Shown here piece by piece: positions 22,850 to 50,251 of a DNA stretch of 64,000 bases. Where the stretch lies: the NCBI GenBank assembly GCA_947445035.1, contig CANFCK010000014.1, forward strand, positions 55,178 through 119,177, in the 5' to 3' direction. Within the stretch, counting starts at the first letter, position 1. Every line of letters begins with the position of its first letter. Origin of the DNA: Deltaproteobacteria bacterium. Its GTDB lineage: Bacteria > Myxococcota_A > UBA796 > SXON01. The notes under the pieces were generated by a model, which had not been told where the DNA came from, made no database searches, and saw nothing but the letters and a program-made list of their open reading frames with translations. Both the position numbers and the translations under genes were made by a program.

Positions 22850-23935
22850 CTACATCGACACCACTTCGGCATGCAGCCCGCCCGCGCGGCGCATGCTCTG
22901 AAGGATGACGATCAGGTCGCGCGGGGTGACGCCCATCGCGTTGAGGGCGCTGACGACGTCACCGACGGTGGTTCCCTTGACGAGGATTAGCTTGCCAGCG
23001 TCTTCGCGGACGCGCACCTCGGTGTTGGTGACCGTGGTCGTCTCTCCCGCTGCGAGCATGCCGGGCTGGCTGACCTGGGTCTGTCGCGACACATCGATGG
23101 TGAGGCCCCCGTGGGCGATGGCGACCGGGGACAGGGGGATGTCCGCCCCCATCACCACGGTGCCGGTCCGCTCGTTGACGACCACGCGCAGCACGTGGTC
23201 GAGCTGGACCTCCAACGCCTCTACCGTGGCGATGAATTCGGCCTGACGGCCCAGGTAGTCGTCGGGGACATGCACCATGACGGTGCCGTTGTTCAGCGCG
23301 CGAGCCGTTTCCGGTCCCAGGAGCGCGTTGACTACCGTGGCCACCCGAGCGGAGTTGGTGAAGTCGGGGTCGTGGAGGATCCACTCGAACTGGACCTGCT
23401 CGGTCACCCGAAGACGGTTGGGGATCTCCCGACTGACGCTGGCGCCGCCGGGGATCACGCCTACCGTGGGGTGGTTCCGGGTTGTCTCGTTGCCACCTCC
23501 GGAAACCGAGTAGCCGCCGACGGTGAGCGGGCCCTCGGCGATGGCGTAAACCTGATTTCCGGCGTGCAGCTCCGTCAGGAGTAGGACACCGCCCTCCAAG
23601 GACTTTGCGTCTGCCACCGACATCACGGTGACGTCGAGCTTGCTGCCGGACCGAGCGCCCGCCGGGAGGGTGGCGGAGATCATCACCATCGCCACGTTGC
23701 GCGACTTGATCGCGTCGTCTTGCAGCGAAATCCCCAACGGTGGGAGGCGCGCCTCCAGGGCCCTGATGGTACCGATGTTCTGGGAGCTGTCCCCGCTCTT
23801 GTTGAGGCCGACGACCAGGCCGTAGCCGACCAGCGGGTCGTCATGGATGCCGTAGATACTGGCGAAGTCTTTGAGCCGCGCGGCCTCGGCCGGGGACGAA
23901 AGGACGAGGAGCAGACATCCGAGCAGCGGCGCCAT
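22850..23935 (-). CDS. flgI: Flagellar P-ring protein FlgI, orphaned away from flgH/flgA
   Basis: 361 aa. A signal peptide is followed by 'ARLKDFASIYGIHDDPLVGYGLVVGLNKSGD', the conserved FlgI N-terminus, with the FlgI signature running through to the C-terminus. Confidence 0.9.
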   Translation of the reverse strand: MAPLLGCLLLVLSSPAEAARLKDFASIYGIHDDPLVGYGLVVGLNKSGDSSQNIGTIRALEARLPPLGISLQDDAIKSRNVAMVMISATLPAGARSGSKLDVTVMSVADAKSLEGGVLLLTELHAGNQVYAIAEGPLTVGGYSVSGGGNETTRNHPTVGVIPGGASVSREIPNRLRVTEQVQFEWILHDPDFTNSARVATVVNALLGPETARALNNGTVMVHVPDDYLGRQAEFIATVEALEVQLDHVLRVVVNERTGTVVMGADIPLSPVAIAHGGLTIDVSRQTQVSQPGMLAAGETTTVTNTEVRVREDAGKLILVKGTTVGDVVSALNAMGVTPRDLIVILQSMRRAGGLHAEVVSM

Positions 23936-24001
23936 GACCCCCTATCGGTCGGGGTCGCGGCGAATTGAGCGTTAGCTTCCGAGAACTCAAACGGTGACCT
24001 G

Positions 24002-24763
24002 ATGTCTCTCTCTCGTCGTGATCTGGTGGGCTCCTTCGCGGCTGTAGCTGCCGCCACGCTGGCGGGCACGGCCCACGCGGGCGACAAGAAGCAGGGCACC
24101 AGCCCGCTTCCCGCTTCTGGCACCCCGGCTGCGGCTCCGGCTGCGGCTGCGGCGCCTGCCAGTGGACCCTTCGTGCTGCCGGCGCTCCCATACGCGGACA
24201 CCGACCTCGCTCCTGCAATCTCCCAGAACACCCTCGCCTTCCACTACGGCAAACACCACCAGGGCTACCTCAACAAGCTCAACGAGCTGGTCGCAGGCAA
24301 GGAGTGGGCGGACAAGTCACTGGAAGCGGTGATGAAGGGCACCTACGGCACCGACAAGCTGCCGCTCTACAACAACAGCGCGCAGGTGTGGAACCACACC
24401 TTCTACTGGCAGAGCATGAAGAAGGGCGGCGGCGGTGCGCCGGGTCCAGGCAAGCTCTCCGACGCGATCAAGGCGAGTTTTGGCGACGGCGACGGCTTGA
24501 AGAAGGAGCTGACCCAGGCCGCGGTCAGCAACTTCGGCTCGGGCTGGGCGTGGTTGGTGCAAGACGCCGAGGGCAAGCTCAAGGTGCTCAAGACCTCGAA
24601 CGCCGACAACCCGGTCGTGATGGCGACCGGGCGGCCGCTCCTGACCATCGACGTGTGGGAGCACGCCTACTACCTGGACTATCAGAACAAACGCGCCGAG
24701 TACGTGGCGGCGTGGTTGGACAAGCTGGTGAACTGGAGCTGGGCCGAATCGCAGATGGCGTAG
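24002..24763 (+). CDS. Fe/Mn superoxide dismutase with a twin-arginine (Tat) signal peptide, which suggests a periplasmic location
   Basis: MSLSRRDLVGSFAAVAAATLAGTAHAG carries the SRRxLV Tat motif. The catalytic signatures are present (FHYGKHHQGY...WNHTFYW...DVWEHAYYLDYQNKR). Confidence 0.9.
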   Translation: MSLSRRDLVGSFAAVAAATLAGTAHAGDKKQGTSPLPASGTPAAAPAAAAAPASGPFVLPALPYADTDLAPAISQNTLAFHYGKHHQGYLNKLNELVAGKEWADKSLEAVMKGTYGTDKLPLYNNSAQVWNHTFYWQSMKKGGGGAPGPGKLSDAIKASFGDGDGLKKELTQAAVSNFGSGWAWLVQDAEGKLKVLKTSNADNPVVMATGRPLLTIDVWEHAYYLDYQNKRAEYVAAWLDKLVNWSWAESQMA

Positions 24764-24774
24764 GCGGTCTGTCG

Positions 24775-25236
24775 CTACTGCCCTGAGCCGTCCCCGTCAT
24801 CGGTAGGGCAGCCCGTCTGGTCGAACTGATCGGCCACGAACTCCCCGAAGTAGCACGCCATGATGCCGCCCTCGTCGTCGTAAACCCGCCAGCCCGCGTA
24901 GGGGCCGTCGTCGCACGAGAGCGTGGTATTGCCGGCGTTGGCCTCCGAGGCCTCGGTGTCGAGCTCGGCGTCGTACAGGTGGATGGTCTTGGTGTCCTTG
25001 TCGAGCCCGCCGTAGGGCACGGTGTGGAACTCCACCGGATCGGGGCTGGCCTTGACCTCGGCGATGACCTCGGGGACCTGCTCCGAGAAGCCAATCTGGA
25101 GGTGGAGCACGCCATCGACGCACTCGTTGAGCGGCGTGCCCACGATCTCGATGACGGTGTCGGAGGTGAAGGGGACGTCCTCTTCGGCAGAGTCGGACTC
25201 GGGGGTGCAGGCGAGGGTGAAGAGGAGGAGCATCTG
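24775..25236 (-). CDS. Small hypothetical lipoprotein
   Basis: An internal start gives MLLLFTLACTPESD, a lipobox. The protein is acidic and Cys-containing. The ORF-track N-terminal extension is Arg/Cys junk. Confidence 0.45.
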   Translation of the reverse strand, partial: QMLLLFTLACTPESDSAEEDVPFTSDTVIEIVGTPLNECVDGVLHLQIGFSEQVPEVIAEVKASPDPVEFHTVPYGGLDKDTKTIHLYDAELDTEASEANAGNTTLSCDDGPYAGWRVYDDEGGIMACYFGEFVADQFDQTGCPTDDGDGSGQ

Positions 25237-25324
25237 ACGCGATAACTCGATGCCCCTCGACCGCGGTAGCGGCTTCCGCCGCGGCGGCCGCCGGCGAACT
25301 CCCGGTCTGCCCGCTACGCCTCCG

Positions 25325-26569
25325 CTACCTGGGCGGCCCAGGCTCGACCGGCTCGACCGGCTCGACCGGCACCACCGGCACCACCGGCAGCTCCGCCGGT
25401 CCAAACACGACCTCCCTCATCTGCGAGTAGCGGCTCTCCGCGTGCTGCTTGTCGATCCAGCCCATCAGCGCGGCGCTGTGGTAGCCGATGCGCACCTGGG
25501 AGAGGCTGCGCACCTCGGCCTCGGTGGTGGGCGTCAACGGGCGATCGACCGCCATGAGCTCGGCGTAGCGCTGCGGCAAGAGCGGCTTGCGGTTGGGCTC
25601 GACCAGACCGTAGGGCAGTAGGGCCAAGGACGTCTCAGGATCGTAGAGGTCCTCGGCGCCGAGAACATGCCCGAGCTCATGGGCCACGGTCTCTTGGGCA
25701 TAGGCGGCGTTGTTGTCGTCGAGAGATACGAACGAAACCGCGATACGACCGGTGCTCGAGCCCCGGCTGTCGGACGCCAGGCTCCCCGCGTCGTGACCGT
25801 ACACCAGGTAGACGCGAACGCCCCAGTCGTCGGGCTCGGCGCCGTTGTCCCGCGCGAGTCCGTGCCAGAAGTCGGCATAGCGCCATGCACGCCACGCCGC
25901 TGTCACCCGGTTGATATCGGGGTCGTCGAGCACCGGCGGGTCAACCGTGCCAACCCACGGACCGAAGGTGGTGACGCGGATGGGCACCGCCGTACTGCCG
26001 GTGAACCGCGCGTACTCCTGTTCGTACCAGTCCTGCACTCGCCGGAGCGCCCACGGGCTGCCGACGTCGTTGAGCAGGCCGATCATCGGATGGTTTGCGT
26101 CTTCGGCCTGCACGAACTGGAACACCGCCACGCTGATGCCCTCGGTCACGTCGAGGTGCTCACGCTCGTCGCGGTTGTGCTGCACGACCTCGTAGAGAAA
26201 GACGGTGAACAGGAAGATCGCGAAGAGTTGCCGGACACGCCTATTCCGCTGGAGTGTCTTGCGCTTTTCCGTGCACGACACGCAAAAGCGTCCGCCCCCC
26301 GCGTCCAGTCGGCACTGCGCGCAGATGCCCATGCCGCAGTCGGAGCAGGTGCGCCCGAGCAGCTGGGGCGGGTGTTTCGGACAGGTCGCCGGCGAGCCGT
26401 CCAGGTCCTCGATGATGGCGATGAGGGCGCCCGTGTCGCGCATGCGGGCCGCGAGGGCCTCGGCCTGGGGGGCGTCCGCGGTGATGAGCACCGGAACTGG
26501 AAAGAGCGCCGAGCCGGACACGGCAGCGTCGCCCGGCTGGCCGTCGGGCGGTGGGCGAATGACGACCAC
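25325..26569 (-). CDS. Membrane-anchored putative zinc metallopeptidase (HExxH) with an N-terminal cytoplasmic double zinc-ribbon
   Basis: The N-terminus carries CPKHP...CSDCGMGICAQC...FCVSC. It is followed by a TM helix (LFAIFLFTVFLY), then 'AQETVAHELGHVLGAEDLYD'. The C-terminal PVVPVVPVEPVEPVEP comes from 9-bp DNA repeats at 25341-25385. Confidence 0.55.
   Translation of the reverse strand: MVVIRPPPDGQPGDAAVSGSALFPVPVLITADAPQAEALAARMRDTGALIAIIEDLDGSPATCPKHPPQLLGRTCSDCGMGICAQCRLDAGGGRFCVSCTEKRKTLQRNRRVRQLFAIFLFTVFLYEVVQHNRDEREHLDVTEGISVAVFQFVQAEDANHPMIGLLNDVGSPWALRRVQDWYEQEYARFTGSTAVPIRVTTFGPWVGTVDPPVLDDPDINRVTAAWRAWRYADFWHGLARDNGAEPDDWGVRVYLVYGHDAGSLASDSRGSSTGRIAVSFVSLDDNNAAYAQETVAHELGHVLGAEDLYDPETSLALLPYGLVEPNRKPLLPQRYAELMAVDRPLTPTTEAEVRSLSQVRIGYHSAALMGWIDKQHAESRYSQMREVVFGPAELPVVPVVPVEPVEPVEPGPPR
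25341..25385. repeat. 9-bp tandem repeats, (GGCTCGACC)3(GGCACCACC)2, encoding the C-terminal PVVPVVPVEPVEPVEP of the metallopeptidase-like gene
   Basis: Read directly: ggctcgaccggctcgaccggctcgaccggcaccaccggcaccacc. Confidence 0.9.
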
Positions 26570-28913: not shown

Positions 28914-30002
28914 TCAGGCCGAGCCTGCCCGCGCGGCGTGTGCTTGGGCCCGGCGCCGGTACACGACCGCCAGCACTTGGGCCACGGCGCCGTAGAACTC
29001 GGCGGGGATTGGGAGGCCCAGACGGGACTTCGCGTACAGCGCGCGCGCCAGGGTTCGGTTCTCGATGATCGGCACTTCGTGGCGGTTGGCCTCCGCGCGA
29101 ATCTTGAGGGCGAGGTGATCGACCCCTCGGGCGAGCACGATCGGTGCGCCGCTCTGATCTTTGCGGTAACGCAGCGCGATGGCGTAGTGGGTGGGGTTGA
29201 CCACCACGACGTCGGCCTCCTGGACCTTGCGGAGCATCTGCCCCGTGGCCAGCTGACGTTGTCGCTGACGACGTTTCGCTTTGACCTGGGGATTGCCTTC
29301 CTGCTCCTTGTGCTCCTGCTTCACTTCCTGCTGGGTCATCCGCATCTGCTCGGCCAGCTGGAAACGTTGCCACCCGTAATCGGCGGCGCCGATCGCGAGC
29401 GTCACGGGCAGCACCCGCTGGAAGAAGCTTTGGATCAGCTCGGTCATGAACTCGAGCTGCCCCCGCACGTCCACCGCGGCGATGACCGGCAGGGCATCCA
29501 ACCGCGTCTCGATGGCGGACCACGCGGCCCAGGATACCGCGGTCGCGACCGCCAAACCCTTGATGAGGGCGACGACCGGCTGGACACTGAAGAAGTGGCT
29601 CTTGGCGTTCTCCAGCGGATCCAGCCGCTCGAGCTTGGGCACCAGCGCGTCGGGAGCGACGTTGAACCCGGTGACCAGCAGCCCGGCGATGATCGTGGAG
29701 AACGTGCTCGCCGCGAGCACCAGCAACAGCGGCGGCCCGAGGTTCACGGCGATGGCGAGGGCCACGTTGCTTACGTCTTCCTGCGTCAATTCGTGATCGC
29801 TGATCCGGTCGTTGAGGGCGTCGAACAGGCCGTAAAAGCCGGCGCTGAACAGTGGAAACGCCGCGAGCAACGAGCCGGCGCCCACGGTCAGCCCGATCGC
29901 GGCGGACAGCTCCTTGCTCTGGGCGACCTTGCCCTCGTCGCGGAACTGTTGGATCTTCCGTTCACTGGCGTCCTCGGTTTTTTCCTGCTCGGAATCAGCC
30001 AC
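28914..30002 (-). CDS. flhB: Flagellar export apparatus protein FlhB
   Basis: A GTG at 30002 gives MADSEQEKTEDASERKIQQFRDEGKVAQSKEL. TM helices are present and the NPTHYA autocleavage motif (VVVVNPTHYAIALRY) is present. Confidence 0.9.
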   Translation of the reverse strand: MADSEQEKTEDASERKIQQFRDEGKVAQSKELSAAIGLTVGAGSLLAAFPLFSAGFYGLFDALNDRISDHELTQEDVSNVALAIAVNLGPPLLLVLAASTFSTIIAGLLVTGFNVAPDALVPKLERLDPLENAKSHFFSVQPVVALIKGLAVATAVSWAAWSAIETRLDALPVIAAVDVRGQLEFMTELIQSFFQRVLPVTLAIGAADYGWQRFQLAEQMRMTQQEVKQEHKEQEGNPQVKAKRRQRQRQLATGQMLRKVQEADVVVVNPTHYAIALRYRKDQSGAPIVLARGVDHLALKIRAEANRHEVPIIENRTLARALYAKSRLGLPIPAEFYGAVAQVLAVVYRRRAQAHAARAGSA

Positions 30003-30771
30003 CGCCCATCCCGCGGATGATGCGATGAATGGGCTCCCAGGCGCCTTGCAGGGCCACTGCTTCGACGTGCAGCAGCGCCGGCAGCGCCGCACCGAGCAGC
30101 ACGATCCCGGCAATGATGGTGAACGACATTCCGATCGAGAAGAAGAGTTGGAGGCCCGGCGCCATCCGGCCAATGACGAGGAGCGCCAGGTTCAGCATCA
30201 ACGCGAACGCCACCAGCGGACCGGCGAGCTGCACTCCGAGGCGAAACACATTGTTCGCCACCTCGAAGAGCACGGTCGCGGCGCCGAGGGGGTCCGTGAC
30301 GTGCCCGGGGGGGAGCGCTCGGAACGACTCGCCCAGCGCCCGCACGCAGCCGAGGTGCATGTCCAGGGCGAAGAAGACCCCGGTCGCCAAGAGCTGCGCG
30401 AGCGCCCCCAGCGTGCTGCCGTGGGCGCCTGTCATCGGGTCCAGCATCGACGACATCGTGAGGCCGATGTTGTTGCTGATGATCTCCGAGGCCGTCGATA
30501 CCGCCCCGGTCAGCAGGGCGAGCGTGAATCCCATCGCGACGCCGAGCACGACCTCGCCGGCGACGGTCGCGACCAGCTCAGGCACGGTCACCGGCAGCCG
30601 GGCGCCGTCGGCCGCGGGTACCAACACCGCCGCCAGTGGGAGGCAGATCGCCATGCGCACGGGTCGGGGCACGCCCGCGTTCCCCGTCACCGGGAGTGCC
30701 ATGAACATCGCCGACACCCGCGCAAACACCAGGATCCCCACCAGAAAGGGGGTGAGGTCCAGGTTTTCCAT
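29995..30771 (-). CDS. fliR: Flagellar export apparatus protein FliR
   Basis: The start at 30771 gives MENLDLTPFLVGILVFARVSAMFMALPV..., a polytopic membrane protein of the FliR family. Its end overlaps the flhB start. Confidence 0.9.
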   Translation of the reverse strand: MENLDLTPFLVGILVFARVSAMFMALPVTGNAGVPRPVRMAICLPLAAVLVPAADGARLPVTVPELVATVAGEVVLGVAMGFTLALLTGAVSTASEIISNNIGLTMSSMLDPMTGAHGSTLGALAQLLATGVFFALDMHLGCVRALGESFRALPPGHVTDPLGAATVLFEVANNVFRLGVQLAGPLVAFALMLNLALLVIGRMAPGLQLFFSIGMSFTIIAGIVLLGAALPALLHVEAVALQGAWEPIHRIIRGMGGG

Positions 30772-31052
30772 CAGCGTTCGGCTCGGCCGGACGCCTCTGA
30801 AATGCGGTCGAAGGACCGGGTAGCGTAGGCGACGGTCTGCTCGAGCATCCAGCCGCCGCCGACGGCGAGCACGCCGATGACCGCGATGAGCTTGGGCAAG
30901 AAGCTGAGCGTCTGCTCGTGGATCTGGGTGACCGCCTGCACGAGCGACACCACGGTGCCCACCAGGATCGAGGCGATGAGCACCGGGGCGCTCAAGAGCA
31001 GCGCCATCCGCATGGCCTCCTGACCGATTCGCATGACCTCGGAGGCATTCAT
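30771..31052 (-). CDS. fliQ: Flagellar export apparatus protein FliQ
   Basis: 93 aa. MNASEVMRIGQEAMRMALLLSAPVLIASILVGTVVSLVQAVTQIHEQTLSFLPKLIAV..., with its stop overlapping the fliR start. Confidence 0.9.
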   Translation of the reverse strand: MNASEVMRIGQEAMRMALLLSAPVLIASILVGTVVSLVQAVTQIHEQTLSFLPKLIAVIGVLAVGGGWMLEQTVAYATRSFDRISEASGRAER

Positions 31053-33380: not shown

Positions 33381-33433
33381 CGGTACTCCCGATGCCTTCC
33401 CTTCGGTCACTCCCGAGGGATCTTTAGCGGTAC

Positions 33434-37468: not shown

Positions 37469-37514
37469 GTTCTACTCTTCGGTCGGGGCTGGGGGTTCTT
37501 GAGGTCCGAAACGT

Positions 37515-39451: not shown

Positions 39452-39513
39452 GGCCCCGTCTTCGGTCGGGCCGGGGCGAACTTGAGCCGGGCCGGGGCGA
39501 TAGGGTGCCGTTC

Positions 39514-41023: not shown

Positions 41024-41125
41024 GGTGCTTCATCGGTCGGGAGCGGAGCGGCTTCAGTCGGGTTCCGCAAAGGAAGACTCCAACCGCCCTGGACGTCAAC
41101 CACGCGCGGTCGGCACCCCCGCCGC

Positions 41126-42079
41126 CTAGCGCCCCGGCGCCTTCGGCACCTGCAGCGCGACCAGCCGCGCCATGGTGTCCGACATCTTGTCGGGCGAACC
41201 ATCGAGGAAAATAACGTTCCCCTTGCCTTCTTCGGCGAAGTGCTTCAGGGACTCGGTCCACATCGAGAACAGGATGAAGCTGACATCGAGGTTGGCCTTT
41301 TGCATCTCGGCGGCCGCCTCGGTCATGCCGCGGGCGACCTCGTGACGGAACAAGGCGATGCCCTGCCCGCGGAGCTGCGCGGCGACTTTTTCAGCCTCGG
41401 CGGCGATCCGGATCGCGTTGCCCTCGGCCTCGGCCTGTTTGGTGCGGGTGATGAGGAGCGCTTGACCCTCGTTCTCGGCGGCGGCGCGGAGGTTGCTGGA
41501 GGCCACGACCTTGGCCATCGATCGCAAGATCTCTTCGTCAAAGGCGATGTCGTTCATCTGGAGATCGATGAGGTGGTAGCCCCACTCGGAAAGCTGGTGG
41601 TCGAGCTGTTCTTTGACCGAGTCGATGATCTCACGACGCAGGCCGAGGATCTCCGACTGCTTCTTGGTCGCGACAAAGGACCGGACGGAGCCTTCGATCG
41701 AACGAACCAGCGCGGTCATGAACGCCCGTTCGTCCACGAACTTGAACGCCACGTTCATGATGGTGTCTTCGTCGTGGTTGAGCACCGAGAAAAGCAGCAT
41801 CTGCTTGAAGTGCACGTTGGCCTGGTCGATGGTGATCGCCTGGAACGACATCTCGACGGCGCGGTTCTGTAACGACAGCCGCTGCGACACCACCTCGATG
41901 ATCGGAATCTTCAGGTTGAGGCCTGGCCGCAGCACTCGCCCAAACTTGCCGAAGCGGGTCACGATGCCGACGCAGCCTTGCTGGATGGTGGTGAAGCTGC
42001 CGGCCGCGATGACGAGCCCGACGATTGCGATGCACGGGATCCCCGTGAGGGTCAAAAGTCCGAGTAGCTCTTCCATCAT
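41126..42079 (-). CDS. SPFH/band-7 (stomatin/prohibitin-like) membrane protein immediately upstream of fliJ
   Basis: The start at 42079 gives MMEELLGLLTLTGIPCIAIVGLVIAAGSFTTIQQGCVGIVTRFGKFGRVLRPGLNLKIPIIEVV..., the canonical SPFH start. A coiled-coil C-terminus is present (AAENEGQALLITRTKQAEAEGNAIRIAAEAEKVAAQLRG). Confidence 0.8.
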   Translation of the reverse strand: MMEELLGLLTLTGIPCIAIVGLVIAAGSFTTIQQGCVGIVTRFGKFGRVLRPGLNLKIPIIEVVSQRLSLQNRAVEMSFQAITIDQANVHFKQMLLFSVLNHDEDTIMNVAFKFVDERAFMTALVRSIEGSVRSFVATKKQSEILGLRREIIDSVKEQLDHQLSEWGYHLIDLQMNDIAFDEEILRSMAKVVASSNLRAAAENEGQALLITRTKQAEAEGNAIRIAAEAEKVAAQLRGQGIALFRHEVARGMTEAAAEMQKANLDVSFILFSMWTESLKHFAEEGKGNVIFLDGSPDKMSDTMARLVALQVPKAPGR

Positions 42080-42455
42080 GCACCAGGGTGGGGAACACGG
42101 ATGTAACGCGGTTGGCGTGGCCGCTCGGGCCGAAACGCGGAGCGCGGCGGGTGGGGTGAGGCCGCGCGCGGGTGTGCCCGACGCATCGCCGAATCGTGCA
42201 TCACCCAGCGAGAGTGAGCTGCCCCTGCGGACCCGCCAGCAGCGCAGTTCCAAGCGGGAGATCGTCGGGGAGAGAGGTGGTGCATGCGCGTCGGGGCCTG
42301 CCCGCGCACGGTTTCCGGGGCGTGCCGTGGTCAGCGCTCCGGTTTGCCTCACGCCGATGGCGCCGACCGGGGGTGGCCAGGGGCCCGGGGAGCGACCGCG
42401 AGGGCGGGCTCGGACAAATCGTGACATGTTAATTTATGGGCCGCAGACGGGACAA

Positions 42456-42488
<33 letters not shown>

Positions 42489-42567
42489 CGGCGTCGTAGC
42501 GTGCACACTGTCGATGTGCAACGCTGCCTCCGCGCGCCCGACTTTCCACCTCTTACCTGGCGCGCGG

Positions 42568-42972
42568 GAGTATTCAATGTGCCAGACCCGGACCATCAAC
42601 CTGCCCTGGACCACGCGCTACTCGGATGTGACCGCCAACGACGGTGTCTTTTTGCCGGTGTCTGGTTGGATGGACGCATCGACGGTACGTCGGCTGCGAG
42701 TGGCCTTCGAGGTCGCGGCGACGACCGACGCCAGTGGGATCATCAAGCCGGGCATCGAGTACGCCAATGTGGAGAACACCCCCTTTGGCGGACTGACGTT
42801 GACCGGCGCCGCTGCGCAGACGGGGAACGGCGTGAATTACCCGACGCAACTGTCAGACGTCGGCGCGTCGTCAGACGGCAAGCAACTCGCGCGCCTCGGC
42901 TTCTGGTTCAAGGCCTCGTCGGCGGGGCTGAAAGCGGCGCGCGTGGCGGGCAAGGCGGACGTCGAGTCGTGA
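42568..42972 (+). CDS. Hypothetical protein (134 aa) with no recognisable family
   Basis: MCQTRTINLPWTTRYSDVTANDGVFLPVSGWMDASTVRRLRVAFEVAATTDASGIIKPGIEYANVENTPFGGLTLTGAAAQ... The sequence is protein-like and beta-rich. The stop overlaps the next gene's GTG (GTGA). Confidence 0.4.
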   Translation, partial: EYSMCQTRTINLPWTTRYSDVTANDGVFLPVSGWMDASTVRRLRVAFEVAATTDASGIIKPGIEYANVENTPFGGLTLTGAAAQTGNGVNYPTQLSDVGASSDGKQLARLGFWFKASSAGLKAARVAGKADVES

Positions 42973-44348
42973 TCCGGGAGTCGCTGCTTCCGGAAGGCGC
43001 CGGCTCGACGATGTCGGTGCCGCGCTGCTTTCCGGAGACCGACGGGAGCTCGGTGCCGGCGCCGTTCGCTTCGGCGGGGGGGGCGGGGCGGTTCGCCGCA
43101 CGCGCCAAGAACGTCGACGACGCAGACTTGATGCCGCCGTTTCAGACGCAGAACGACGGCATGACCGTTGATGCGTACGGGCATGGTGGGTTCTTCACCC
43201 CGGCATCCATCGGTCCTTGGGTGGACATCTACCTGTCCGCCGGCGTCGAGGACGGCGGCGCGTCGTGTCATCATGACAACCAGGCCACTTGTGGGCTGTA
43301 CCGCGTACGATGGGACCTTGGGCTGGAACGCGCGGTGGAGGTGGAACTGATTCGTCGCTCGTGGCGAGGCCCCGATGGGACCCAGTACGGAAACGTGGAG
43401 GCCGCGGTTTCGGAGGCGGGCGACCTCGCCTGGCTGCTGCGCGGATACGACCCGTCAGGCGGCGACGAGAAGCAGACCTACCTGCTGCATAGGCGCAGCG
43501 GCAGTTCGTTTGCCGATGTGCTCGATTCCGGCACGGCGAAGGCGGATCGCCCCCATTTTCCCTGGTTCAACACGGCGGATACCGTCATCTATGCCAAACA
43601 CGACGGGGGACCCTCTCCGGCCGGTCCGGACTGGCAGTCGCTGTGGTGGGTACCGGTCGGTGGCGCGCCGCACGCGCTGGTGGGCAGGGGTCCAGAGACC
43701 GAGCTGAACAGCGGCGCAAGCGACGACCTGAGCTATGGCAACCCGCAGGCCTTTGGCTACGACGGCCGGCGGGTGGTCACCTTCGGCGTGGAGGTGGGCG
43801 CCGACGGCACGGTGAGCGAGCACACAGTTCCGCACGTCACTTCGTTCTTTGGCACGGGGCGGGAGGACTTTTCACTGGGCGGGGGCGGTTTCCTTTCGTG
43901 CCAACATCCGGCGTGGAGCCTGGATGGGACTCGGATTGCGTGCACGCGGCACGCGAAGATGGAGGAGCCTGCCATCGACAGGAAACTGCGCCAGCTGTAC
44001 CGATTCGCGAAGGTCGGCACCATCTGGGTGTCGGAGGGGCCGCTGTTCAAAGCAGCGGACCCCAGCCTGCTGCCGGGGCCCTTCCCCGGGGTCTCCTGTA
44101 AACTCCTCACGTACAAACAGGCCCATTGGTGCGGCGACGCCACGCACGTGGTGGCTACCGTCTTCTGTACGGACTCCAATTTCCCCGACCTGCCGCCATC
44201 GATGTCGCGGGTGCTGCTGATCAACTTCAAGGATCAGGCGAACCCGGTCCACTATGATGTCACCGCGGCGGTGGTGGCGGCGTTTCGCGAGATGGGGGGA
44301 AACCGGCGTTGGCGAGCTATCTTCAGCGTCTGTCGGACCGTAGGGTGA
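42969..44348 (+). CDS. Hypothetical protein (459 aa), possibly a beta-propeller-like fold
   Basis: The GTG at 42969 is coupled to the upstream ORF. The composition is protein-like (…YLLHRRSGSSFADVLDSGTAKADRPHFPWFNTADTVIYAKHDGG…SLDGTRIACTRHAKMEEP…). The upstream 450 aa of the ORF-track call (41613-) is antisense of the SPFH gene and is rejected. Confidence 0.45.
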   Translation: MIRESLLPEGAGSTMSVPRCFPETDGSSVPAPFASAGGAGRFAARAKNVDDADLMPPFQTQNDGMTVDAYGHGGFFTPASIGPWVDIYLSAGVEDGGASCHHDNQATCGLYRVRWDLGLERAVEVELIRRSWRGPDGTQYGNVEAAVSEAGDLAWLLRGYDPSGGDEKQTYLLHRRSGSSFADVLDSGTAKADRPHFPWFNTADTVIYAKHDGGPSPAGPDWQSLWWVPVGGAPHALVGRGPETELNSGASDDLSYGNPQAFGYDGRRVVTFGVEVGADGTVSEHTVPHVTSFFGTGREDFSLGGGGFLSCQHPAWSLDGTRIACTRHAKMEEPAIDRKLRQLYRFAKVGTIWVSEGPLFKAADPSLLPGPFPGVSCKLLTYKQAHWCGDATHVVATVFCTDSNFPDLPPSMSRVLLINFKDQANPVHYDVTAAVVAAFREMGGNRRWRAIFSVCRTVG

Positions 44349-44719
44349 CGCGCGGTACTTGGCGCGCCGCCGTGCTGTGCACGGCCACGGCCTGTGCCCG
44401 GTCGTGCGAACCGGCGTCCACCGCTGAGCCGGCGCCCGCCGATGAGCCGAAGCTCATCCGCTGGACGGACGTGACGCTGGGCTTCTTCCACGGGTGCGGA
44501 ATTCGCCCGAACGGCGACATCCAGTGCTGGTCCGGGGCGCCGATTCCCGTTCACGACACCGGCGGGGACACGGTCATGGACGGCTCGCTGGTGGGGACCT
44601 TTCCGGGGCCGTTCACCTCCGTGGCGTTGAATCACCCCTACCCACACCCCGGGTACGCCGAGACGGTGTGCGGCGTCCGTGCGGCTGGCGATGTGCTCTG
44701 CGTGGGGGGGATGCGATGA
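44345..44719 (+). CDS. RCC1-like-repeat lipoprotein (N-terminal module)
   Basis: The GTG at 44345 (GTGA overlap with the upstream stop) gives MTRGTWRAAVLCTATAC, a lipobox. RCC1-like units are present: 'HGCGIRPNGDIQCWSG' and 'VCGVRAAGDVLCVGG'. Confidence 0.5.
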   Translation: MTRGTWRAAVLCTATACARSCEPASTAEPAPADEPKLIRWTDVTLGFFHGCGIRPNGDIQCWSGAPIPVHDTGGDTVMDGSLVGTFPGPFTSVALNHPYPHPGYAETVCGVRAAGDVLCVGGMR

Positions 44720-45309
44720 CCCCCCAAGGCTCCTTTACCCACTTCTATCCGACCGGCGCGGGCGTGGGTTGCGGGCTTCTGAGCGATGGCGGTGGCAGAT
44801 GCGAGCCGGATTGGCCCCACGAAGGGTCCGCGCGGGACCTGCCCGATGTCATGGCGATGTCGGTGTCGCAGTTTTACCTGGCCCTGATCGACTTGGCCGG
44901 TGCGCTCACCGTGGACATGGACTTTGTGGAGCCGGTCGATACCGTCGTCGTCAGTGGGTCGTGGACGGCAATTGCGGGTGATGACTGGGGCTCGTTTTGT
45001 GGACTGCAGCGTCAGGGTACACTCGTGTGCTGGGACCTCGGGCCGGGGCCCACGTCCATGCCGGTCCCCCTTTCCGCGCCGACCGGCACCTACCAACAGG
45101 TATGCCTCACCGCGAACGATCAGGCCTGCGTCCTCGACGCCGGCGGCAAGGCAACATGCTGGGGCGCCGAACGGATGGAGGCCCCGGACGAGACCTTCAG
45201 CAAGCTGGCCTGCGGAACCCATTCGGTGTGCGGCCTGACCGACGACGGCCGCATCGTCTGCTGGGGCGCCTGCGACAACGGGGAGTGTGATGTCCCGACC
45301 TATGAATAG
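44716..45309 (+). CDS. RCC1-like-repeat protein, coupled to the previous gene (ATGA). It may be the C-terminal part of one split gene.
   Basis: MTPQGSFTHFYPTGAGVGCGLLSDGGGRCEP...SFCGLQRQGTLVCWD...ACVLDAGGKATCWGA...VCGLTDDGRIVCWGAC. Four more RCC1-like Cys/Trp/Gly units are present. Confidence 0.55.
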   Translation: MTPQGSFTHFYPTGAGVGCGLLSDGGGRCEPDWPHEGSARDLPDVMAMSVSQFYLALIDLAGALTVDMDFVEPVDTVVVSGSWTAIAGDDWGSFCGLQRQGTLVCWDLGPGPTSMPVPLSAPTGTYQQVCLTANDQACVLDAGGKATCWGAERMEAPDETFSKLACGTHSVCGLTDDGRIVCWGACDNGECDVPTYE

Positions 45310-45443: not shown

Positions 45444-46751
45444 CTACCGCAAAAGCGCCTCCATCGTCGCGATGGTCTCCGCCAGCGGCGTCGCCTCTTC
45501 CACCGGCTGCGCGAGCCAGGCGTGGATCTTGTCGATGCGCGCGATGGCGGCGTCGACGGGGGGGCTGGAGCCGGCCTTGTAGGCGCCTAGTCGCACGAGC
45601 TCCTCGTTCTGCGCCCAGGTGTTGAGCACGGTGCGCACTTTGCGAGCGGCCTCGCGGTGCGGCGCTCCAGTCACGACGTCCATGACCCGGGAGATGCTCG
45701 CCAGCACATCGACAGCGGGGAAGCGGCCCTGCCCTGCGATCTTGCGGCTGAGCACGACATGGCCGTCCACGATGCCGCGGACCGCGTCGCCGACGGGGTC
45801 GGCTTCGACATCGTCGCCGTCCACCAGCACGGTGTAGAGCGCGGTGATGCTGCCGCGGTTGGCGCCCGGACCCGCCCGCTCCAAAAGGCGAGGCAAGAGC
45901 GAAAAGCAGCTTGGGGTGTAGCCGCGGGTCGTCGGGGGCTCGCCGACCGCGAGGCCGATCTGCCGTTGGGCCATCGCAAGCCGAGTGACGCTGTCGAGCA
46001 TGAGCATCACGTCGCGGCCTTGATCGCGGAAGTGCTCGGCCACGGCCATCGCCAAGAAGGCACCGCGCAGTTGCAACACGGGAGAGCGATCACTGGTCAC
46101 GACGATGACCACGCTGCGGCGCAGGCCCTCGGGCCCGAGGACGTCCTCGAGGAACTCGCGAACCTCGCGGCCGCGTTCGCCGACCAGCGCGATGACGTTG
46201 ACGTCGGCAGCGCTTCGGCGCGCGATCATGCCGAGCAGCGTGCTCTTGCCTACACCGGAGCCGGCCATCAGTCCGACGCGCTGACCGCGGCCCAGGGTCA
46301 GGAGCCCATCGAGTACCCGGACGCCGGTCGGGAGCGGGGTCCGCACCAGCGAGCGCGACATCGCGTCGGGAGGGAGCGCGTGCAGCGGGCGCGCGATGAC
46401 CCCGGCGATGGGGCCCTTGCCGTCGAGCGGCTGCCCGAATCCGTCGATCACCCGCCCGCGAAGCGCGTCGCTGACCATCGCCATCGGCATCTCGCCGGTG
46501 CAGGTCACGCTTGCCCCGTGACGCACGCCGTCCAACGACGAAAAGGGCATCAGCAGCGCCCGGCGCTCCTTGAAGCCGACGGTCTCGGCGGGGCCCACGC
46601 CATCGATGATCGCGACCTCGCCGATGCGCGCGCCCGGCAGCTCGGCCGTGACCAGGGTCCCTTGCACCGCGACCACCCGGCCGCGGCGACTCTGGGTCGG
46701 CGCGTCGGTCCAGCGTCGTTCGAGCGACTCCAAGCCCAAGAGCGAGGCGCT
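45444..46751 (-). CDS. fliI: Flagellum-specific ATPase FliI
   Basis: The start at 46751 gives MSASLLGLESLERRW... The Walker A motif (MAGSGVGKSTLLGMIAR) and Walker B motif (VMLMLDSVTRLAMAQRQIGLAVGEPP) are present. The protein is related to F1-beta and T3SS ATPases. Confidence 0.92.
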   Translation of the reverse strand, partial: SASLLGLESLERRWTDAPTQSRRGRVVAVQGTLVTAELPGARIGEVAIIDGVGPAETVGFKERRALLMPFSSLDGVRHGASVTCTGEMPMAMVSDALRGRVIDGFGQPLDGKGPIAGVIARPLHALPPDAMSRSLVRTPLPTGVRVLDGLLTLGRGQRVGLMAGSGVGKSTLLGMIARRSAADVNVIALVGERGREVREFLEDVLGPEGLRRSVVIVVTSDRSPVLQLRGAFLAMAVAEHFRDQGRDVMLMLDSVTRLAMAQRQIGLAVGEPPTTRGYTPSCFSLLPRLLERAGPGANRGSITALYTVLVDGDDVEADPVGDAVRGIVDGHVVLSRKIAGQGRFPAVDVLASISRVMDVVTGAPHREAARKVRTVLNTWAQNEELVRLGAYKAGSSPPVDAAIARIDKIHAWLAQPVEEATPLAETIATMEALLR

Positions 46752-47548
46752 CATGCGCTGCGCTTCCACGCCTGGACCTCGGCCAGAAGCGAGCCAGAGG
46801 CGGTGTTGAGGGTCGCATCGACGATGCCCGCGTCGCCCTCGGCGATGCATCCCGCCTGCACGGAGGGGTCTCCCAGTACGCGGATGCTCTCGCCCATCGC
46901 GGACTGCACGCGCTCGACGTCTGCGGGGTTCACGCGCACGGTGACCGCGCCTGAGGACAGGGTTTCGACGGTCTCGCGGACCAACGCTTCGAGCAGGCCC
47001 GGCTGCGCTTGGAGCGCGTCTCCGGCGAGTTTGCGGGCACCTAGGAGCAGCAGGGTACCGGCGTGGGCGCGAAGCTCTGCGACCATGCTCTGCTTGAGCC
47101 GGGCCAGCTCGGCGGCGAGCTGTCCGAGACGTTCGGTGGAGGCGGCGGCGCGGAGCTTCTGAGCTTGGAGATCGGCGACGAGGTGCGCGTGTTCGGCCTC
47201 GCGCACGCGGTCGAGCTCGGCGTTTTCTGCGGCCGTCGCCTCGGCGCCCTTGACGGCTTGGGCGATGGCCTCGGCCTGGACCTGCTCGGCGAGCGAAACG
47301 TACCCGGACGCAGTGCCAGCCGGCAGTCCGTCGTCGCTCGGGGCGGTGGCCGGGTCGTCGGTGTGCTCAACCGACTCGTCGAGCGCCGGAGCCGGCGCCT
47401 CGGCCGCGACCGGGTCTCGCGCGGGTAGCCCAGCGGTGAACACCATCGATCGGGCCGGTGCCAGCGTGCTGAAGGCGCGAGGCGCGCCGCCGCTTGGCGC
47501 GCTGGGAACGAACACGCCGCGGGGTGACAGAGGGCGGAAGGTGGCCAC
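46751..47548 (-). CDS. fliH: Flagellar assembly protein FliH
   Basis: 265 aa with a coiled-coil charged central region (…AENAELDRVREAEHAHLVADLQAQKLRAA…) and a C-terminal FliH/YscL-like domain. It lies immediately upstream of fliI and its stop overlaps the fliI start. Confidence 0.7.
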   Translation of the reverse strand: MATFRPLSPRGVFVPSAPSGGAPRAFSTLAPARSMVFTAGLPARDPVAAEAPAPALDESVEHTDDPATAPSDDGLPAGTASGYVSLAEQVQAEAIAQAVKGAEATAAENAELDRVREAEHAHLVADLQAQKLRAAASTERLGQLAAELARLKQSMVAELRAHAGTLLLLGARKLAGDALQAQPGLLEALVRETVETLSSGAVTVRVNPADVERVQSAMGESIRVLGDPSVQAGCIAEGDAGIVDATLNTASGSLLAEVQAWKRSA

Positions 47549-47551
47549 GTC

Positions 47552-48598
47552 CTACGCGTCCTCGTCCGGACCGGTCGCGAGCACGATGACGCCTTCGTCA
47601 TGGAGCCGCTGCGCCGCTGCGGTGACGCTCTCCTGGGCCGTGCGCATCTGCGACTTGCGGGGGTTGCCAAGCACGTCCATCTCGTCTTGGAGATCGGCGG
47701 CAGCGCGGCTGGACAGGTTCTTGAGGAAACGGCCCTTGAGCTCGGGCGGCGCACCCTTGAGCGCCATGACGAGGTGGCCGCGCTCCACCACCTTGAGCAC
47801 CTGCTGGATGGCGCGGTCGTCGAGGTTGATGAGGTCGTCGAAGACCACCATGAGTCGCTGCAGCTTGTCGGCCAGTTCGTTGCCCTCGTCGCGCAGCCGC
47901 TCAAGGACCAGCTGGTTCGTTTCGCGGGGCAGGCGGCCGAGGATGCGCGCCGTGGTCTGAGCGCCGCCGATGAGCAGCGGGTCGTCCTGATCTTCGAGAG
48001 CACGCCGGATGGCGTCTTCCACGTCGTCCGCCAGCTCCCCCGAGACGCGCTCAGCGCCCGCCATGCGCTTGGTCAGATCGTACTGCGCTTCGGCGTCGAG
48101 CACGCCCAGCACACGGGAGGCGTTCTCGGGCCCCATGCGCAGCAGGGCCACGGCCTGAACCTGGGGGTGCTCCTCACGCAGCACCGCCGCAATGGCGCCA
48201 GCGGAGCGGCTCTTGATGAAGTCTTCGAAGTCGCTGCCAACACGACGGCGGATGGCGCCGGCCACCACATGCCGACGCTCCTCATCGACCAGCTCGGGCA
48301 GCACGGACTGCGCGAAGTCGCGACCGGTGTACGGTACCAGCGACACGCTCTGCAGGCTGAGGATGAAGTCCTTGACCACGCCTTCGATCACCTCGTCAGG
48401 CACTTGCTGGACGGCGGCGATGGCCATCCCAAGGCGCTTGACCTCGTCGTCCTTGAGCTTGCGCAGCACCATCCGCGCGGTGTCGCGCTGCAGGTACATG
48501 ATGAGGATGGCGGCCTTTTCGAGCCCGCTCAGCGTCACCAATGGCTTGGCGGGAACCTCGGCGGCCTTGGCTTCATCTTTTTTTGCGGCGGCGGCCAT
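47552..48598 (-). CDS. fliG: Flagellar motor switch protein FliG
   Basis: 348 aa. '…LSGLEKAAILIMYLQRDTARMVLRKLKDDEVKRLGMAIAAV…' and the C-terminal 'DDRAIQQVLKVVERGHLVMALKGAPPELKGRFLKNLSSRAA' match the FliG armadillo and torque-helix regions. Confidence 0.9.
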   Translation of the reverse strand: MAAAAKKDEAKAAEVPAKPLVTLSGLEKAAILIMYLQRDTARMVLRKLKDDEVKRLGMAIAAVQQVPDEVIEGVVKDFILSLQSVSLVPYTGRDFAQSVLPELVDEERRHVVAGAIRRRVGSDFEDFIKSRSAGAIAAVLREEHPQVQAVALLRMGPENASRVLGVLDAEAQYDLTKRMAGAERVSGELADDVEDAIRRALEDQDDPLLIGGAQTTARILGRLPRETNQLVLERLRDEGNELADKLQRLMVVFDDLINLDDRAIQQVLKVVERGHLVMALKGAPPELKGRFLKNLSSRAAADLQDEMDVLGNPRKSQMRTAQESVTAAAQRLHDEGVIVLATGPDEDA

Positions 48599-48607
48599 CG
48601 CGACTCC

Positions 48608-50251
48608 TTAGGTCCGTATCCAGCGACGGAGCACTTCCGCGCTGTGGTCAGTTTCGCGGAGCACCAGCGCGGAGACGTCCTGCGCGCTGACGTGGCGGAA
48701 GCCCTCGACCTGCTTGCGCAGCCGCTCGCCGAGGTCCGTAACGTGGTCGTCGTGTTCGCCACCGACCTGAGCGTGTTGGCCGTACGCCGCCGCACCCCTG
48801 GTCGCCGAACCCGCCACACGGGTGACGGTGATCGGCGTGCCGTCAGGGCCGATCGTCTCGACGGTTTCCATGTGAGCGGGCTGGCCGAGCGAGACCGCCC
48901 CGTGCAGTTGAAGCGCCTTGAGCAGCGGGCGGACCACCATGAAGAAGGTGAGCAGCACCGCCACCAGCGCGACGGCGGCCGGAATGAGGCTCGCCCATGG
49001 AATGGCTACGGAGAAAGTCGCGTCGCTCATCGGGGTCTCCGCAAAGGGAACGAAGCGCACGTTGATGGCGTCGCCGCGCTTGGCGTCAAACCCGAGGGCC
49101 GTCTGGGCGACCAGCTCCAGCGAGGCGCGCAGCTCCTTCTCGTCGATCTTGCTGGCGGTCGCGATGGCCTGCACCGTGGCGAGGTCGATCATCACGCCGG
49201 CGCTGATGCGCTTGAGCTCGCCGGCCGGCTTGATCGTCGTGGTCTGGGTGGTGCTGACCTGGTATTGGGTGTCGGTCTGCTCGCGTTTGCGGGCGGTTCC
49301 GGCGTTGGATGGGGTCGCGACCGTAGGAGTGTTGCTCTGCACCCCGGCTTCGCCCGGTTGGGCACCGGTGGTGGTGGCGCTGTTCTGATCGCTCTCGGCC
49401 TTTTCGCGGATGGCGGCCACGCTGTCGGGGTCGACGGCGTTGACGGTCGATTGGGAGGAGGTGCTGTCGACGTCGAGCTGCACGATCACGCTGACCGCGG
49501 CCGGGGTGCCCAGCACGGCCGCCAGGGCCTCGGTGACGGTCTTCTGCATCCGTGCAGCGCGCCGCTCGGCTTCGTCGGGGGCGGCGGCAGGATCCTCGAC
49601 GCCTTCGCCGGACCAGATGGTGCGGCCGGTGTTCTGATCGACCACGGTCACGTCGGCGTCGGTCATGCCGGGAAGGCCGTCGGCGACGAGCTTCGCGATG
49701 GTCTTGCCCAGGTCGCGGTTGGCAGTCATGCCCGCTTCGGTCTTGATGCTCACCGAGGCGCTGGGCCGGGCATCGTCGCCGAGGAAGCCGGTGCCCTGGT
49801 CGAGGTTGACCAGCACCGAGCTGGCGGCGATGCCGCGGATGCCGTTGATCTGCTTGACGAGCTCGCCCGCCAGCATCTTCTGGAGGTAGACCTTCTCCGC
49901 CCAGGGGGTGCTCCACGCCGGCACGTCGGTGACACCTTCGAGGCCGGTGGCAGCGGGGTTGCCGGCGGTCGCCTTCTTGGCGCTCGCCAGGTCGATCGAG
50001 GGCACTTCGATCGTCTGGCCGTCCGCGCCCAGCCGCCAGTCCACGCCGGCCGCGCTGAGCTGGTCGAGGATGACCGTACGGTTGTCGTTGTCGTAGACCC
50101 GGTTGAGCTTGCTCCAGCTCGGCTGGCTCGCCCAGATACCCACCCCGATCAGGGCGAGGAGGGAGGCGCCGGCGGCCACGCCCAGTACCTTCTTACGGGT
50201 GGCGTCGAGGCCACTCCAGAACTCGGTCACCTGGGTCCGCACATCCGACAC
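48608..50251 (-). CDS. fliF: Flagellar M-ring protein FliF
   Basis: 547 aa. MSDVRTQVTEFWSGLDATRKKVLGVAAGASLLALIGVGIWASQPSW... The N-terminal TM, the ring-building motifs and the C-terminal TM with a FliG-binding tail are all present. Confidence 0.9.
   Translation of the reverse strand: MSDVRTQVTEFWSGLDATRKKVLGVAAGASLLALIGVGIWASQPSWSKLNRVYDNDNRTVILDQLSAAGVDWRLGADGQTIEVPSIDLASAKKATAGNPAATGLEGVTDVPAWSTPWAEKVYLQKMLAGELVKQINGIRGIAASSVLVNLDQGTGFLGDDARPSASVSIKTEAGMTANRDLGKTIAKLVADGLPGMTDADVTVVDQNTGRTIWSGEGVEDPAAAPDEAERRAARMQKTVTEALAAVLGTPAAVSVIVQLDVDSTSSQSTVNAVDPDSVAAIREKAESDQNSATTTGAQPGEAGVQSNTPTVATPSNAGTARKREQTDTQYQVSTTQTTTIKPAGELKRISAGVMIDLATVQAIATASKIDEKELRASLELVAQTALGFDAKRGDAINVRFVPFAETPMSDATFSVAIPWASLIPAAVALVAVLLTFFMVVRPLLKALQLHGAVSLGQPAHMETVETIGPDGTPITVTRVAGSATRGAAAYGQHAQVGGEHDDHVTDLGERLRKQVEGFRHVSAQDVSALVLRETDHSAEVLRRWIRT

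Follow-up and report, generated by a model that had tools for sequence, protein, structure and literature searches.

Flagellar genes have been documented already in the Myxococcota. A flagellar cluster of 55.7 kb is present in Anaeromyxobacter, swimming was observed in strain K, and the cluster was interpreted as ancestral and not as recently acquired (PMC2330069). Flagellar genes were also reported in uncultured Myxococcota orders from Zodletone metagenome-assembled genomes (MAGs) (bioRxiv 10.1101/2021.07.06.451402), and most of the cultured Myxococcota are without flagella (PMC2330069). Here we analyzed the flagellar genes carried by a 64-kb stretch of DNA from a Deltaproteobacteria bacterium (contig CANFCK010000014.1), and the whole of this stretch is called the window. 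An earlier note on the same DNA had described these genes as unusually organised and had called flagella rare in the phylum, which is overstated in view of the reports above.

The region is probably the main flagellar cluster of an uncultured high-GC clade labelled Myxococcota/Deltaproteobacteria, inherited vertically and provided with several sigma-28-type promoters. Its layout is what is usual in the clade and in fla/che-type loci, and the cluster is functional-looking as judged from its sequence. The view of the earlier note that this is a genuine flagellar cluster with conserved non-flagellar genes after flhB is thus borne out. The unusual organisation is overstated, since the order is largely the standard fla/che one and is collinear with loci of other phyla. 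The only features which go beyond routine annotation are the sigma-28-like pattern of many promoters and leaderless starts, and the conserved envelope genes behind flhB.

With the provided data, flagellar genes are well resolved in one more member of a phylum that is known above all for gliding and for movement by pili, and the data indicate that a whole uncultured freshwater/environmental clade retains such genes. The gain is a testable regulatory map with six predicted sigma-28-type promoters, four of them predicted to be leaderless, along with a list of unannotated envelope genes linked to flhB. Current views of flagellar biology are not overturned.

Flagellar genes and putative promoters

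Genes were called by frame analysis of the GC content at third codon positions (GC3), and domains were assigned by Pfam and NCBIfam scans with the curated cut-offs applied. For comparison four relatives were read, L010 and L113 from JGI, L013 from NCBI (GCA_005778355.1) and L112 from ENA, whose FlhB proteins are 59-63% identical to that of the window. A distant relative, L015 (FlhB 45%), is mentioned where it bears on a point.

The core flagellar gene set and the coordinates of the earlier note agree with the Pfam/NCBIfam results, and all the genes lie on the minus strand as full-length open reading frames (ORFs). Assignment is clear for fliF, fliG, fliH, fliI, flgD, TIGR02530, flgE, fliL, fliN, fliO, fliP, fliQ, fliR, flhB and flgI. 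The MS-ring/C-ring set of FliF, FliG, FliM and FliN is present, the first, second and fourth being clear and FliM divergent, and FliG has both the EHPQ motif and the charged C-terminal torque helix. The ATPase complex is present as well, with FliH and FliI above the cut-off and FliJ below it but conserved in position. FliI shows the Walker A sequence GSGVGKS. Its true start is likely at 46754, where ATGA overlaps the fliH stop, 96 nt inside the ORF given earlier, and from that start the protein has 436 aa, the same size as in L013. All four proteins of the export gate (FliP, FliQ, FliR and FlhB) exceed the Pfam gathering scores, and the FlhB autocleavage site NPTH is intact and invariant in the FlhB alignment. 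The Pfam match of FliO is weak yet specific. The flagellum-specific axial and periplasmic parts FlgE, FlgD, FlgI and FliL are all there. A check for an injectisome found neither a secretin nor a needle gene within the cluster, and the sole nearby secretin is PilQ, outside the window.

The remaining members are placed mainly by context. The name fliK rests mostly on the position between the motE-like gene and flgD; the Pfam scan gave no match for the protein and the PDB profile search a chance match only, and its C-terminal block is conserved among the relatives. The motE-like gene keeps its place between fliJ and fliK in L010 and L013. FliM matches TIGR01397 in part only (E 7e-11), its 41.9 bits being far under the cut-off of 219.6. 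Its N-terminus (MSSSVLAQDRELQA...) is only loosely like the CheY-P-binding LSQxEIDALL and is missing in L015. No che genes were found in the window, and chemotactic switching in this lineage may differ.

The upstream regions carry a common pattern. Six matches of the motif TVAAD-N14-RCCGAWR were found in the window, where 0.26 would be expected. None of 100 shuffles reached six, and a Markov control gave 0.02 expected for a stricter form of the motif. The forms in the window are TCAAG/TAAAG-N14-RCCGAWR. All six share the strand of the flagellar genes and stand immediately ahead of fliF, fliJ, the motE-like gene, flgD, fliN and flgI, and the scan gave none ahead of the FG-GAP, p414, p152, Band_7 or esterase genes which are described below. 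The motif recurs in the relatives, preceding fliJ and flgD in L010 and the fliJ junction, flgD, fliL and fliN in L013, and standing upstream of fliN in L015, L112 and L113. An alignment of 15 sites gives CTCAAG-N13-GACCGA(A/T)G, in which CT.AA and CCGA are invariant.

In P. aeruginosa the sigma-28 promoter of fliC has the -35 sequence TCTAAAG and the -10 sequence GCCGATAA, and in the structure of this promoter the -10 element spans -15 to -8 (PMC12784957). The elements predicted for sigma-28 promoters, a TAAAG-like -35 and a GCCGATAA-like -10, were found upstream of the flagellar genes and are conserved in relatives. As the motif stands so near to the ATG, a -10 element at -15 to -8 would place the transcript starts at or within 1-2 bases of it, and for fliJ, the motE-like gene, flgD and flgI mRNAs with no leader, or almost none, are predicted. 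In L015 a sigma gene of the FliA/WhiG kind stands behind flhB.

The motE-like gene has a motif without counterpart in L010 and L013, where this gene overlaps fliJ. Its promoter sequence is nearer to the fliJ promoter of L010 than to the fliJ promoter of the window itself. It may be speculated that this promoter arose together with the insertion of the esterase.

The cluster would then not be one operon. Its backbone, fliFGHIJ, the ylxF/motE-like gene, fliK, flgD, TIGR02530, flgE, fliLMNOPQR and flhB, would be read from sigma-28 (FliA)-type promoters before fliF, fliJ, the motE-like gene, flgD and fliN, with a further one before flgI. The esterase, an SPFH gene and four opposite-strand ORFs would have been inserted between separately promoted segments, and these insertions may have been tolerated without silencing because each segment carries its own promoter. 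The genes for FlhA, rod, L-ring, stator, filament and FliA would be located elsewhere in the genome.

Relatives, missing genes and taxon

Among the matches listed, 56 FlhB homologues of at least 50% identity were found in metagenomes. All four relatives show flgE-fliL-fliM-fliN, a long fliO, fliPQR and flhB, followed by an ortholog of the FG-GAP/MopE lipoprotein and then a homologue of p414, and none of the four has flhA after flhB. Their FliO proteins have 380-526 aa. In L010, L112 and L113 flgI follows at a distance of a few kb, and neither flgH, flgA nor any other flagellar gene adjoins it. The lack of flhA after flhB, the appended envelope genes, flgI without flagellar neighbours and the long FliO are therefore features at the level of the clade, and much of what seemed odd in the window is normal for the clade because it recurs in the relatives. 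The earlier note had held that the organisation would be ordinary if the organism came from a routinely flagellated clade with the same gene order, and this is largely the case, as the four relatives encode flagellar genes likewise.

The interruptions are of another kind. In L013 nothing separates fliJ from fliI and the opposite-strand block is missing, and in L010, whose locus is legible only as far upstream as its Band_7 gene, that gene lies directly upstream of fliJ as in the window. The esterase is missing from both relatives which cover the junction of fliJ and the motE-like gene (L010 and L013). The esterase is thus a local insertion, and the opposite-strand block probably is one too.

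In L112 (13017-15754) and L113 (14816-17625) two genes of the same strand stand before flgI, one for a 466-aa protein with HExxH and one for a 446-aa protein resembling multihaem cytochromes, with a gap of 6 bp to flgI in L112, and behind flgI come genes for a protein of 230 aa and for one with a TIG domain. The window has none of these four genes, and a promoter motif stands before its flgI instead. That they are a hidden flgH or flgA was rejected in view of the HExxH and multihaem features and of their absence from the window. In L013 (14959-17688) IS66, IS4-like and IS110 transposase genes replace the small lipoprotein after the p414 homologue, and rearrangements seem to take place at this downstream end of the cluster.

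The absence of flhA after flhB, as reported earlier, was confirmed, and tblastn with two verified FlhA proteins found no FlhA (FHIPEP) in the window, its flanks or the loci of the relatives. Among the coding ORFs by GC3 in the window and 8-9 kb of flank, no rod (FlgB/C/F/G, FliE), stator (MotA/B) or filament (FliC, FliD, FlgK/L) genes were found. The rest of the window encodes SecA, AspRS, PEGA and MopE proteins and redox enzymes, with no further flagellar genes; pilMNOPQ/aroBK lie on one side of it, and FG-GAP/MopE and xanthine-dehydrogenase-type genes on the other.

These gaps could also be expected of a decaying or repurposed remnant, such as a non-motile structure or a device for secretion derived from a flagellum. 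The lost linkage of flhA, the insertions and a degenerate FliM would then be signs of erosion in a lineage that glides or twitches. The lack of flhA, rod, stator and filament genes over about 80 kb, the FliM without a clear CheY-binding peptide and far under its model cut-off, the interrupted operon and the pilMNOPQ cluster just upstream of the window would all suit it. Against this, all flagellar ORFs are full-length with 55-85% identity to L010 and L013, FlgE, FlgD, FlgI, FliL and the FliG torque helix are present, and the motif is kept before each fragment, including the motE-like gene which the esterase has parted from fliJ. Dispersed flagellar loci are moreover normal in many motile bacteria, and a remnant is considered highly unlikely.

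Identical proteins occur on metagenome contigs (ENA ERZ27265271 k141_626908, an NCBI contig and Logan runs), and the organism is therefore uncultured. About 30 relatives of its AspRS reach an identity of 70% or more. The nearest of those with a name is from a 'Myxococcota bacterium' MAG (76%), and at 61-65% Delta-, Alpha-, Pseudomonadota and Myxococcota labels occur side by side. Homologues of p414 are labelled 'Deltaproteobacteria' and 'Myxococcota'. The description as Myxococcota-like is reasonable on these grounds, as the best available labels are Myxococcota/Deltaproteobacteria MAGs and the MopE/PEGA/FG-GAP content is suggestive, but it rests on one marker and is not proven.

A recent horizontal acquisition of the flagellar genes as an island might be argued from the flagella-free state of most cultured Myxococcota (PMC2330069) and from the labels of the closest named FlhB proteins, which are Pseudomonadota (49%, 45%) besides Myxococcota (42%, 40%). 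The composition of the window shows no anomaly, GC content and skew of the cluster being equal to those of its flanks, and this supports vertical inheritance. No integrase, tRNA or repeat boundary was found in the window, and the Rfam and tRNA scans of it were empty. The cluster and its neighbours are common to relatives down to 59% FlhB identity, and the numbers of FlhB and AspRS homologues in the clade are similar. An AspRS homologue (P0142, 83%) and an FlhB homologue (P0004, 69%) both have 30,729 bp as the length of their longest contig, which may hint at long-range synteny. Such a transfer is most unlikely.

Several points weigh against the vertically inherited, sigma-28-driven main cluster that is preferred here. 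FliM, FliJ, FliK and the MotE-like protein are assigned below the curated cut-offs. No fliA gene was found in the window, and the roughly 80 kb covered lack flhA and some 15 further flagellar genes, which bears on completeness and on motility. The six motifs are putative promoters, and like the leaderless starts they are predictions made from the DNA. AspRS also matches 'Alphaproteobacteria' and 'Pseudomonadota' MAGs at 64-65%, and the label of the taxon rests on the names given by submitters.

Envelope genes after flhB, interruptions and neighbours

The FG-GAP/MopE lipoprotein does start 17 bp downstream of flhB, as was noted before, and p414 follows after a gap of 14 bp, with no motif and no terminator between them; a generic scan for sigma-70 promoters and terminators was uninformative. 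In the relatives the FG-GAP ortholog and p414 stand after flhB in four of four cases and the small lipoprotein p152 in three (L010, L112 and L113), with gaps of 13-115 bp. The p152 homologues in L010 and L112 are 53-55% identical and hold the same position. As they have no promoter motif of their own, the three genes would probably be co-transcribed with flhB.

In the FG-GAP/MopE protein three Cys-rich repeats of the MopE type occur together with FG-GAP repeats such as beta-propellers typically have. Its ortholog is more conserved than FlhB (72% against 62% in L010, 61% against 59% in L013). A scan of metagenome contigs with the generic pattern DMDGDGD gave no orthologs. Other FG-GAP/MopE proteins are encoded at 18038-19363 and just past the window end, and they are numerous in the genome.

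For p414 the label of Zn-ribbon metallopeptidase-like gene holds, being borne out by the model, by Foldseek and by the invariant HExxH..G..D columns. The AlphaFold model (pLDDT 83.8, built with 35 homologues) shows a small N-terminal domain, a Cys/His zinc ribbon, one long transmembrane helix and an adamalysin/ADAM-like domain, and Foldseek matches this to adamalysin/ADAM catalytic domains (E 2.5e-4, prob 1.0). H297, E298, H301, G304, D307 and M339 are invariant, as are the Cys/His columns of the ribbon. The family has 51 full-length homologues, none of them annotated, and no Pfam/NCBIfam family attains its cut-off. With the HExxHxxGxx(H/D) site, the fold and the downstream Met, p414 has the marks of a metzincin and is a predicted enzyme. 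It shares the fold match, or HExxHxxGxxD and the downstream Met, with adamalysin/ADAM, snake-venom metalloproteinases and snapalysin-like enzymes; unlike adamalysin/ADAM it is bacterial and has a cytoplasmic Zn-ribbon at its N-terminus and only one transmembrane helix, and it is about 12-19% identical to solved structures. A cryptic FlhA fragment was considered for p414 and rejected, given the one transmembrane helix and the metzincin fold.

These genes might be lineage-specific flagellar accessory components, expressed with flhB from the flgD and fliN promoters and forming a periplasmic or outer-membrane scaffold or processing module comparable with the FlgT/FlgP/PflA discs or the spirochaete collar. 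Their linkage to flhB across the relatives, the lack of an own promoter motif, the high conservation of the FG-GAP ortholog and the prediction that all three proteins are extracytoplasmic or membrane-anchored speak for such a role. Homologues of p414 at 41-46% identity adjoin GT87/Lar_N, OmpA/TPR or Omp85 genes, however, and no flagellar genes lie within their 10-kb flanks (one locus has almost no downstream flank), so a dedicated flagellar role of p414 is disfavoured. The abundance of FG-GAP/MopE proteins in the genome tells against an accessory role, and in L015 the nearest protein of this type lies on the opposite strand behind fliA. Linkage among close genomes can be explained as inherited synteny without functional coupling, and Pfam/NCBIfam scans gave the three proteins no similarity to known flagellar accessory families. 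An accessory role is therefore regarded as rather unlikely.

It is unlikely, too, that the three co-transcribed envelope proteins, with the FG-GAP lipoprotein as a seven-bladed propeller, were recruited as lineage-specific flagellar components while the whole regulon, together with its early genes, was put on sigma-28-type promoters giving leaderless mRNAs. If true, this would be a flagellar regulatory and structural variant without described parallel.

The other features around the cluster mostly agree with what had been noted. The split of fliI and fliJ was confirmed, the two genes being 4420 bp apart. The block between them was given as non-flagellar genes, which suits the opposite-strand ORFs but is not uniform, as an SPFH/HflK-like gene in it shares the flagellar strand. 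Besides RCC1_2, the four opposite-strand ORFs have no Pfam/NCBIfam match. Two of them, 44309-44719 and 44716-45309 (+; 136 and 197 aa), have one RCC1-like repeat each and an ATGA overlap, and their combined size is near that of a single beta-propeller protein; one gene may have been split or frameshifted here, or both ORFs may be real genes. Three SPFH/Band-7 genes lie in the window, at 5716-6942 (+), 41126-42079 (-) and about 59131-61470 (+). FliL is regarded as SPFH-like, and by analogy a motor-related role of the copy adjacent to fliJ is conceivable.

The esterase stands on the opposite strand between the motE-like gene and fliJ, and flgI is solitary and divergent, at 66 bp, from the Tat-exported superoxide dismutase, both as described before. 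Upstream of fliF there is indeed no flgB, flgC or fliE, but the di-haem cytochrome c peroxidase (CCP) claimed there is not established (CCP_MauG 25.2 bits, below the cut-off of 25.6), and the gene encodes a lipoprotein with a beta-propeller and one C-terminal cytochrome c domain. It belongs to a divergent pair of paralogous lipoprotein-like genes immediately upstream of fliF (50322-52199, -, and 52364-54376, +), each with a lactonase-like beta-propeller and a C-terminal cytochrome c/RoxA-like domain.

Further away, some 3-8 kb ahead of the first position of the window, a type IV pilus operon of pilM-pilN-pilO-pilP-pilQ lies beside aroK and aroB (L100 1803-7006), so the organism encodes pilus machinery besides its flagellar genes. 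The gene at 9368-13753 (-) codes for a protein of some 1420-1460 aa which contains 22 repeats of the 'acidic double-disulfide' type (NF033662, E 6e-129) and for which Pfam gave no match, and the gene has the same orientation as, and apparently overlaps, a PEGA-domain gene (13630-14748, -). At about 17423-17890 (-; L001 16046-16513) a 155-aa ORF with weak PIN/DUF6364 matches, possibly a VapC-like toxin, sits between a ferredoxin-type gene and a MopE/Ig-like gene.

Table 1. Positions in the window of the flagellar genes, the sigma-28-like motifs and the neighbouring genes
Feature	Position	Strand	Basis or remark
sigma-28-like motif, upstream of fliF	50275-50300	-	
fliF (MS-ring)	48608-50251	-	PF01514 + PF08345, E 3e-25 each
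fliG (rotor/switch)	47552-48598	-	FliG_N/M/C domains
fliH	46751-47548	-	PF02108, E 5e-13
fliI (export ATPase)	45444-46754	-	PF00006 + T3SS_ATPase_C
four opposite-strand ORFs	42436-45309	+	GC3 frames; 178, 445, 136, 197 aa
SPFH/Band-7 (HflK-like), directly upstream of fliJ	41126-42079	-	PF01145, E 3e-28; TIGR01933, E 9e-16 (below cut-off)
sigma-28-like motif	41031-41056	-	ends 7 nt before fliJ ATG
fliJ	40607-41023	-	TIGR02473, E 2.5e-7, and PF02050, E 9e-5, both below cut-off; position conserved in relatives
alpha/beta-hydrolase esterase (BD-FAE/hormone-sensitive-lipase-like)	39514-40596	+	PF20434, E 3e-34; NCBIfam lipase/esterase families
sigma-28-like motif	39460-39485	-	ends 8 nt before motE-like ATG
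MotE/YlxF/FlbB-like gene	38909-39451	-	weak MgtE_N (E 3e-4), collar_FlbB (E 5e-5)
fliK-like (hook-length/substrate-switch candidate)	37515-38912	-	weak YscP/T3S4 match, E 0.007
sigma-28-like motif	37477-37502	-	ends 8 nt before flgD ATG
flgD (hook cap)	36791-37468	-	PF03963, PF13860, PF13861
TIGR02530 family flagellar protein	36390-36794	-	87.3 bits, above the 83.2 cut-off
flgE (hook)	34949-36289	-	four hook/rod domains
fliL	34309-34935	-	PF03748, E 3e-18
divergent fliM	33434-34309	-	FliMN_C only, E 5e-11
sigma-28-like motif, TAAAG variant	33401-33426	-	ends 20 nt before fliN ATG
fliN	33114-33380	-	PF01052, E 3e-21; called as 88-aa gene
fliO, 442 aa, long low-complexity C-terminal extension	31789-33117	-	PF04347, E 5e-7; TIGR03500
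fliP	31049-31792	-	PF00813
fliQ	30771-31052	-	PF01313
fliR	29995-30771	-	PF01311
flhB	28914-30002	-	PF01312, E 2e-105
FG-GAP/MopE lipoprotein, 770 aa	26584-28896	-	PF01839, PF11617; lipobox LAGC
p414: Zn-ribbon, one transmembrane helix, periplasmic metzincin-like domain (HELGHVLGAED)	25325-26569	-	AlphaFold + Foldseek
small lipoprotein p152, 152 aa, last of the same-strand run	24775-25233	-	lipobox LFTLAC
Fe/Mn superoxide dismutase, twin-arginine signal SRRDLV	24002-24763	+	signal motif read from sequence
sigma-28-like motif	23943-23968	-	ends 7 nt before flgI ATG
flgI (P-ring)	22850-23935	-	PF02119, E 1e-113; signal peptide

Comparison with known systems

The backbone of the window matches the gene order, fliL-M-N(Y)-O(Z)-P-Q-R included, of the B. 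subtilis fla/che operon and of the flgB and flgE operons of Borrelia, other spirochaetes and Thermotoga. In six of the nine loci compared (Bacillota, Armatimonadota and Melioribacteraceae), flgD-TIGR02530-flgE...fliN-fliP-fliQ-fliR-flhB is collinear with the window; such fla/che-type loci are those of Oceanobacillus, Paenibacillus, Acidaminobacter, Chthonomonadales and Melioribacteraceae. Collinearity with Phycisphaerae loci was noted as well. The window departs from this type in lacking flgB-flgC-fliE before fliF, flhA-flhF-flhG/che after flhB and cheY between fliN and fliO, in being interrupted twice by unrelated genes, and in having three envelope genes appended. It also has several internal sigma-28-like promoters, whereas the B. 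subtilis-type operon is read mainly from one sigma-A promoter.

The missing flhA, which the earlier note counted as a departure, is less telling than it seemed. A scan of genome contigs with the FlhB alignment (peptide NPTHYAVAL; distant phyla only) gave 80 flhB loci among the matches listed, and flhA lies within 10 kb of flhB in 63 of these and not in the other 17. Separation of flhA and flhB is thus a known arrangement; the 17 loci are mainly from Alphaproteobacteria and Campylobacterota, and six of them are short or truncated contigs of other taxa. The dispersed loci of Alphaproteobacteria and Campylobacterota are like the window in having flhB without a following flhA, and differ from it in the gene order around flhB. 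Their flagellar hierarchies are governed by CtrA, or by sigma-54 with FlgRS. Long FliO variants and varied FliO architectures have been described, including those of Myxococcota (PMC12248157).

The motif of the window is like the P. aeruginosa fliC promoter in having a -35-like and a -10-like sequence at 14-nt spacing (PMC12784957). Its -10 sequence is ACCGA(A/T)G and not the GCCGATAA of P. aeruginosa fliC. It stands before early genes too (fliF and those for export and hook) and not before late genes alone, and at four sites leaderless mRNAs are predicted from it.

The cluster of Anaeromyxobacter dehalogenans is reported to be nearly complete at a single locus, with motAB, fliC and embedded che genes, and to have no recognisable fliJ or fliK (PMC2330069). 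Set against it by description, the window lacks motAB, fliC, flhA and the rod genes locally, and has fliJ and a fliK-like gene. Like the window, A. dehalogenans carries its flagellar genes as a high-GC member of a phylum of gliding and type IV pilus motility (PMC2330069).

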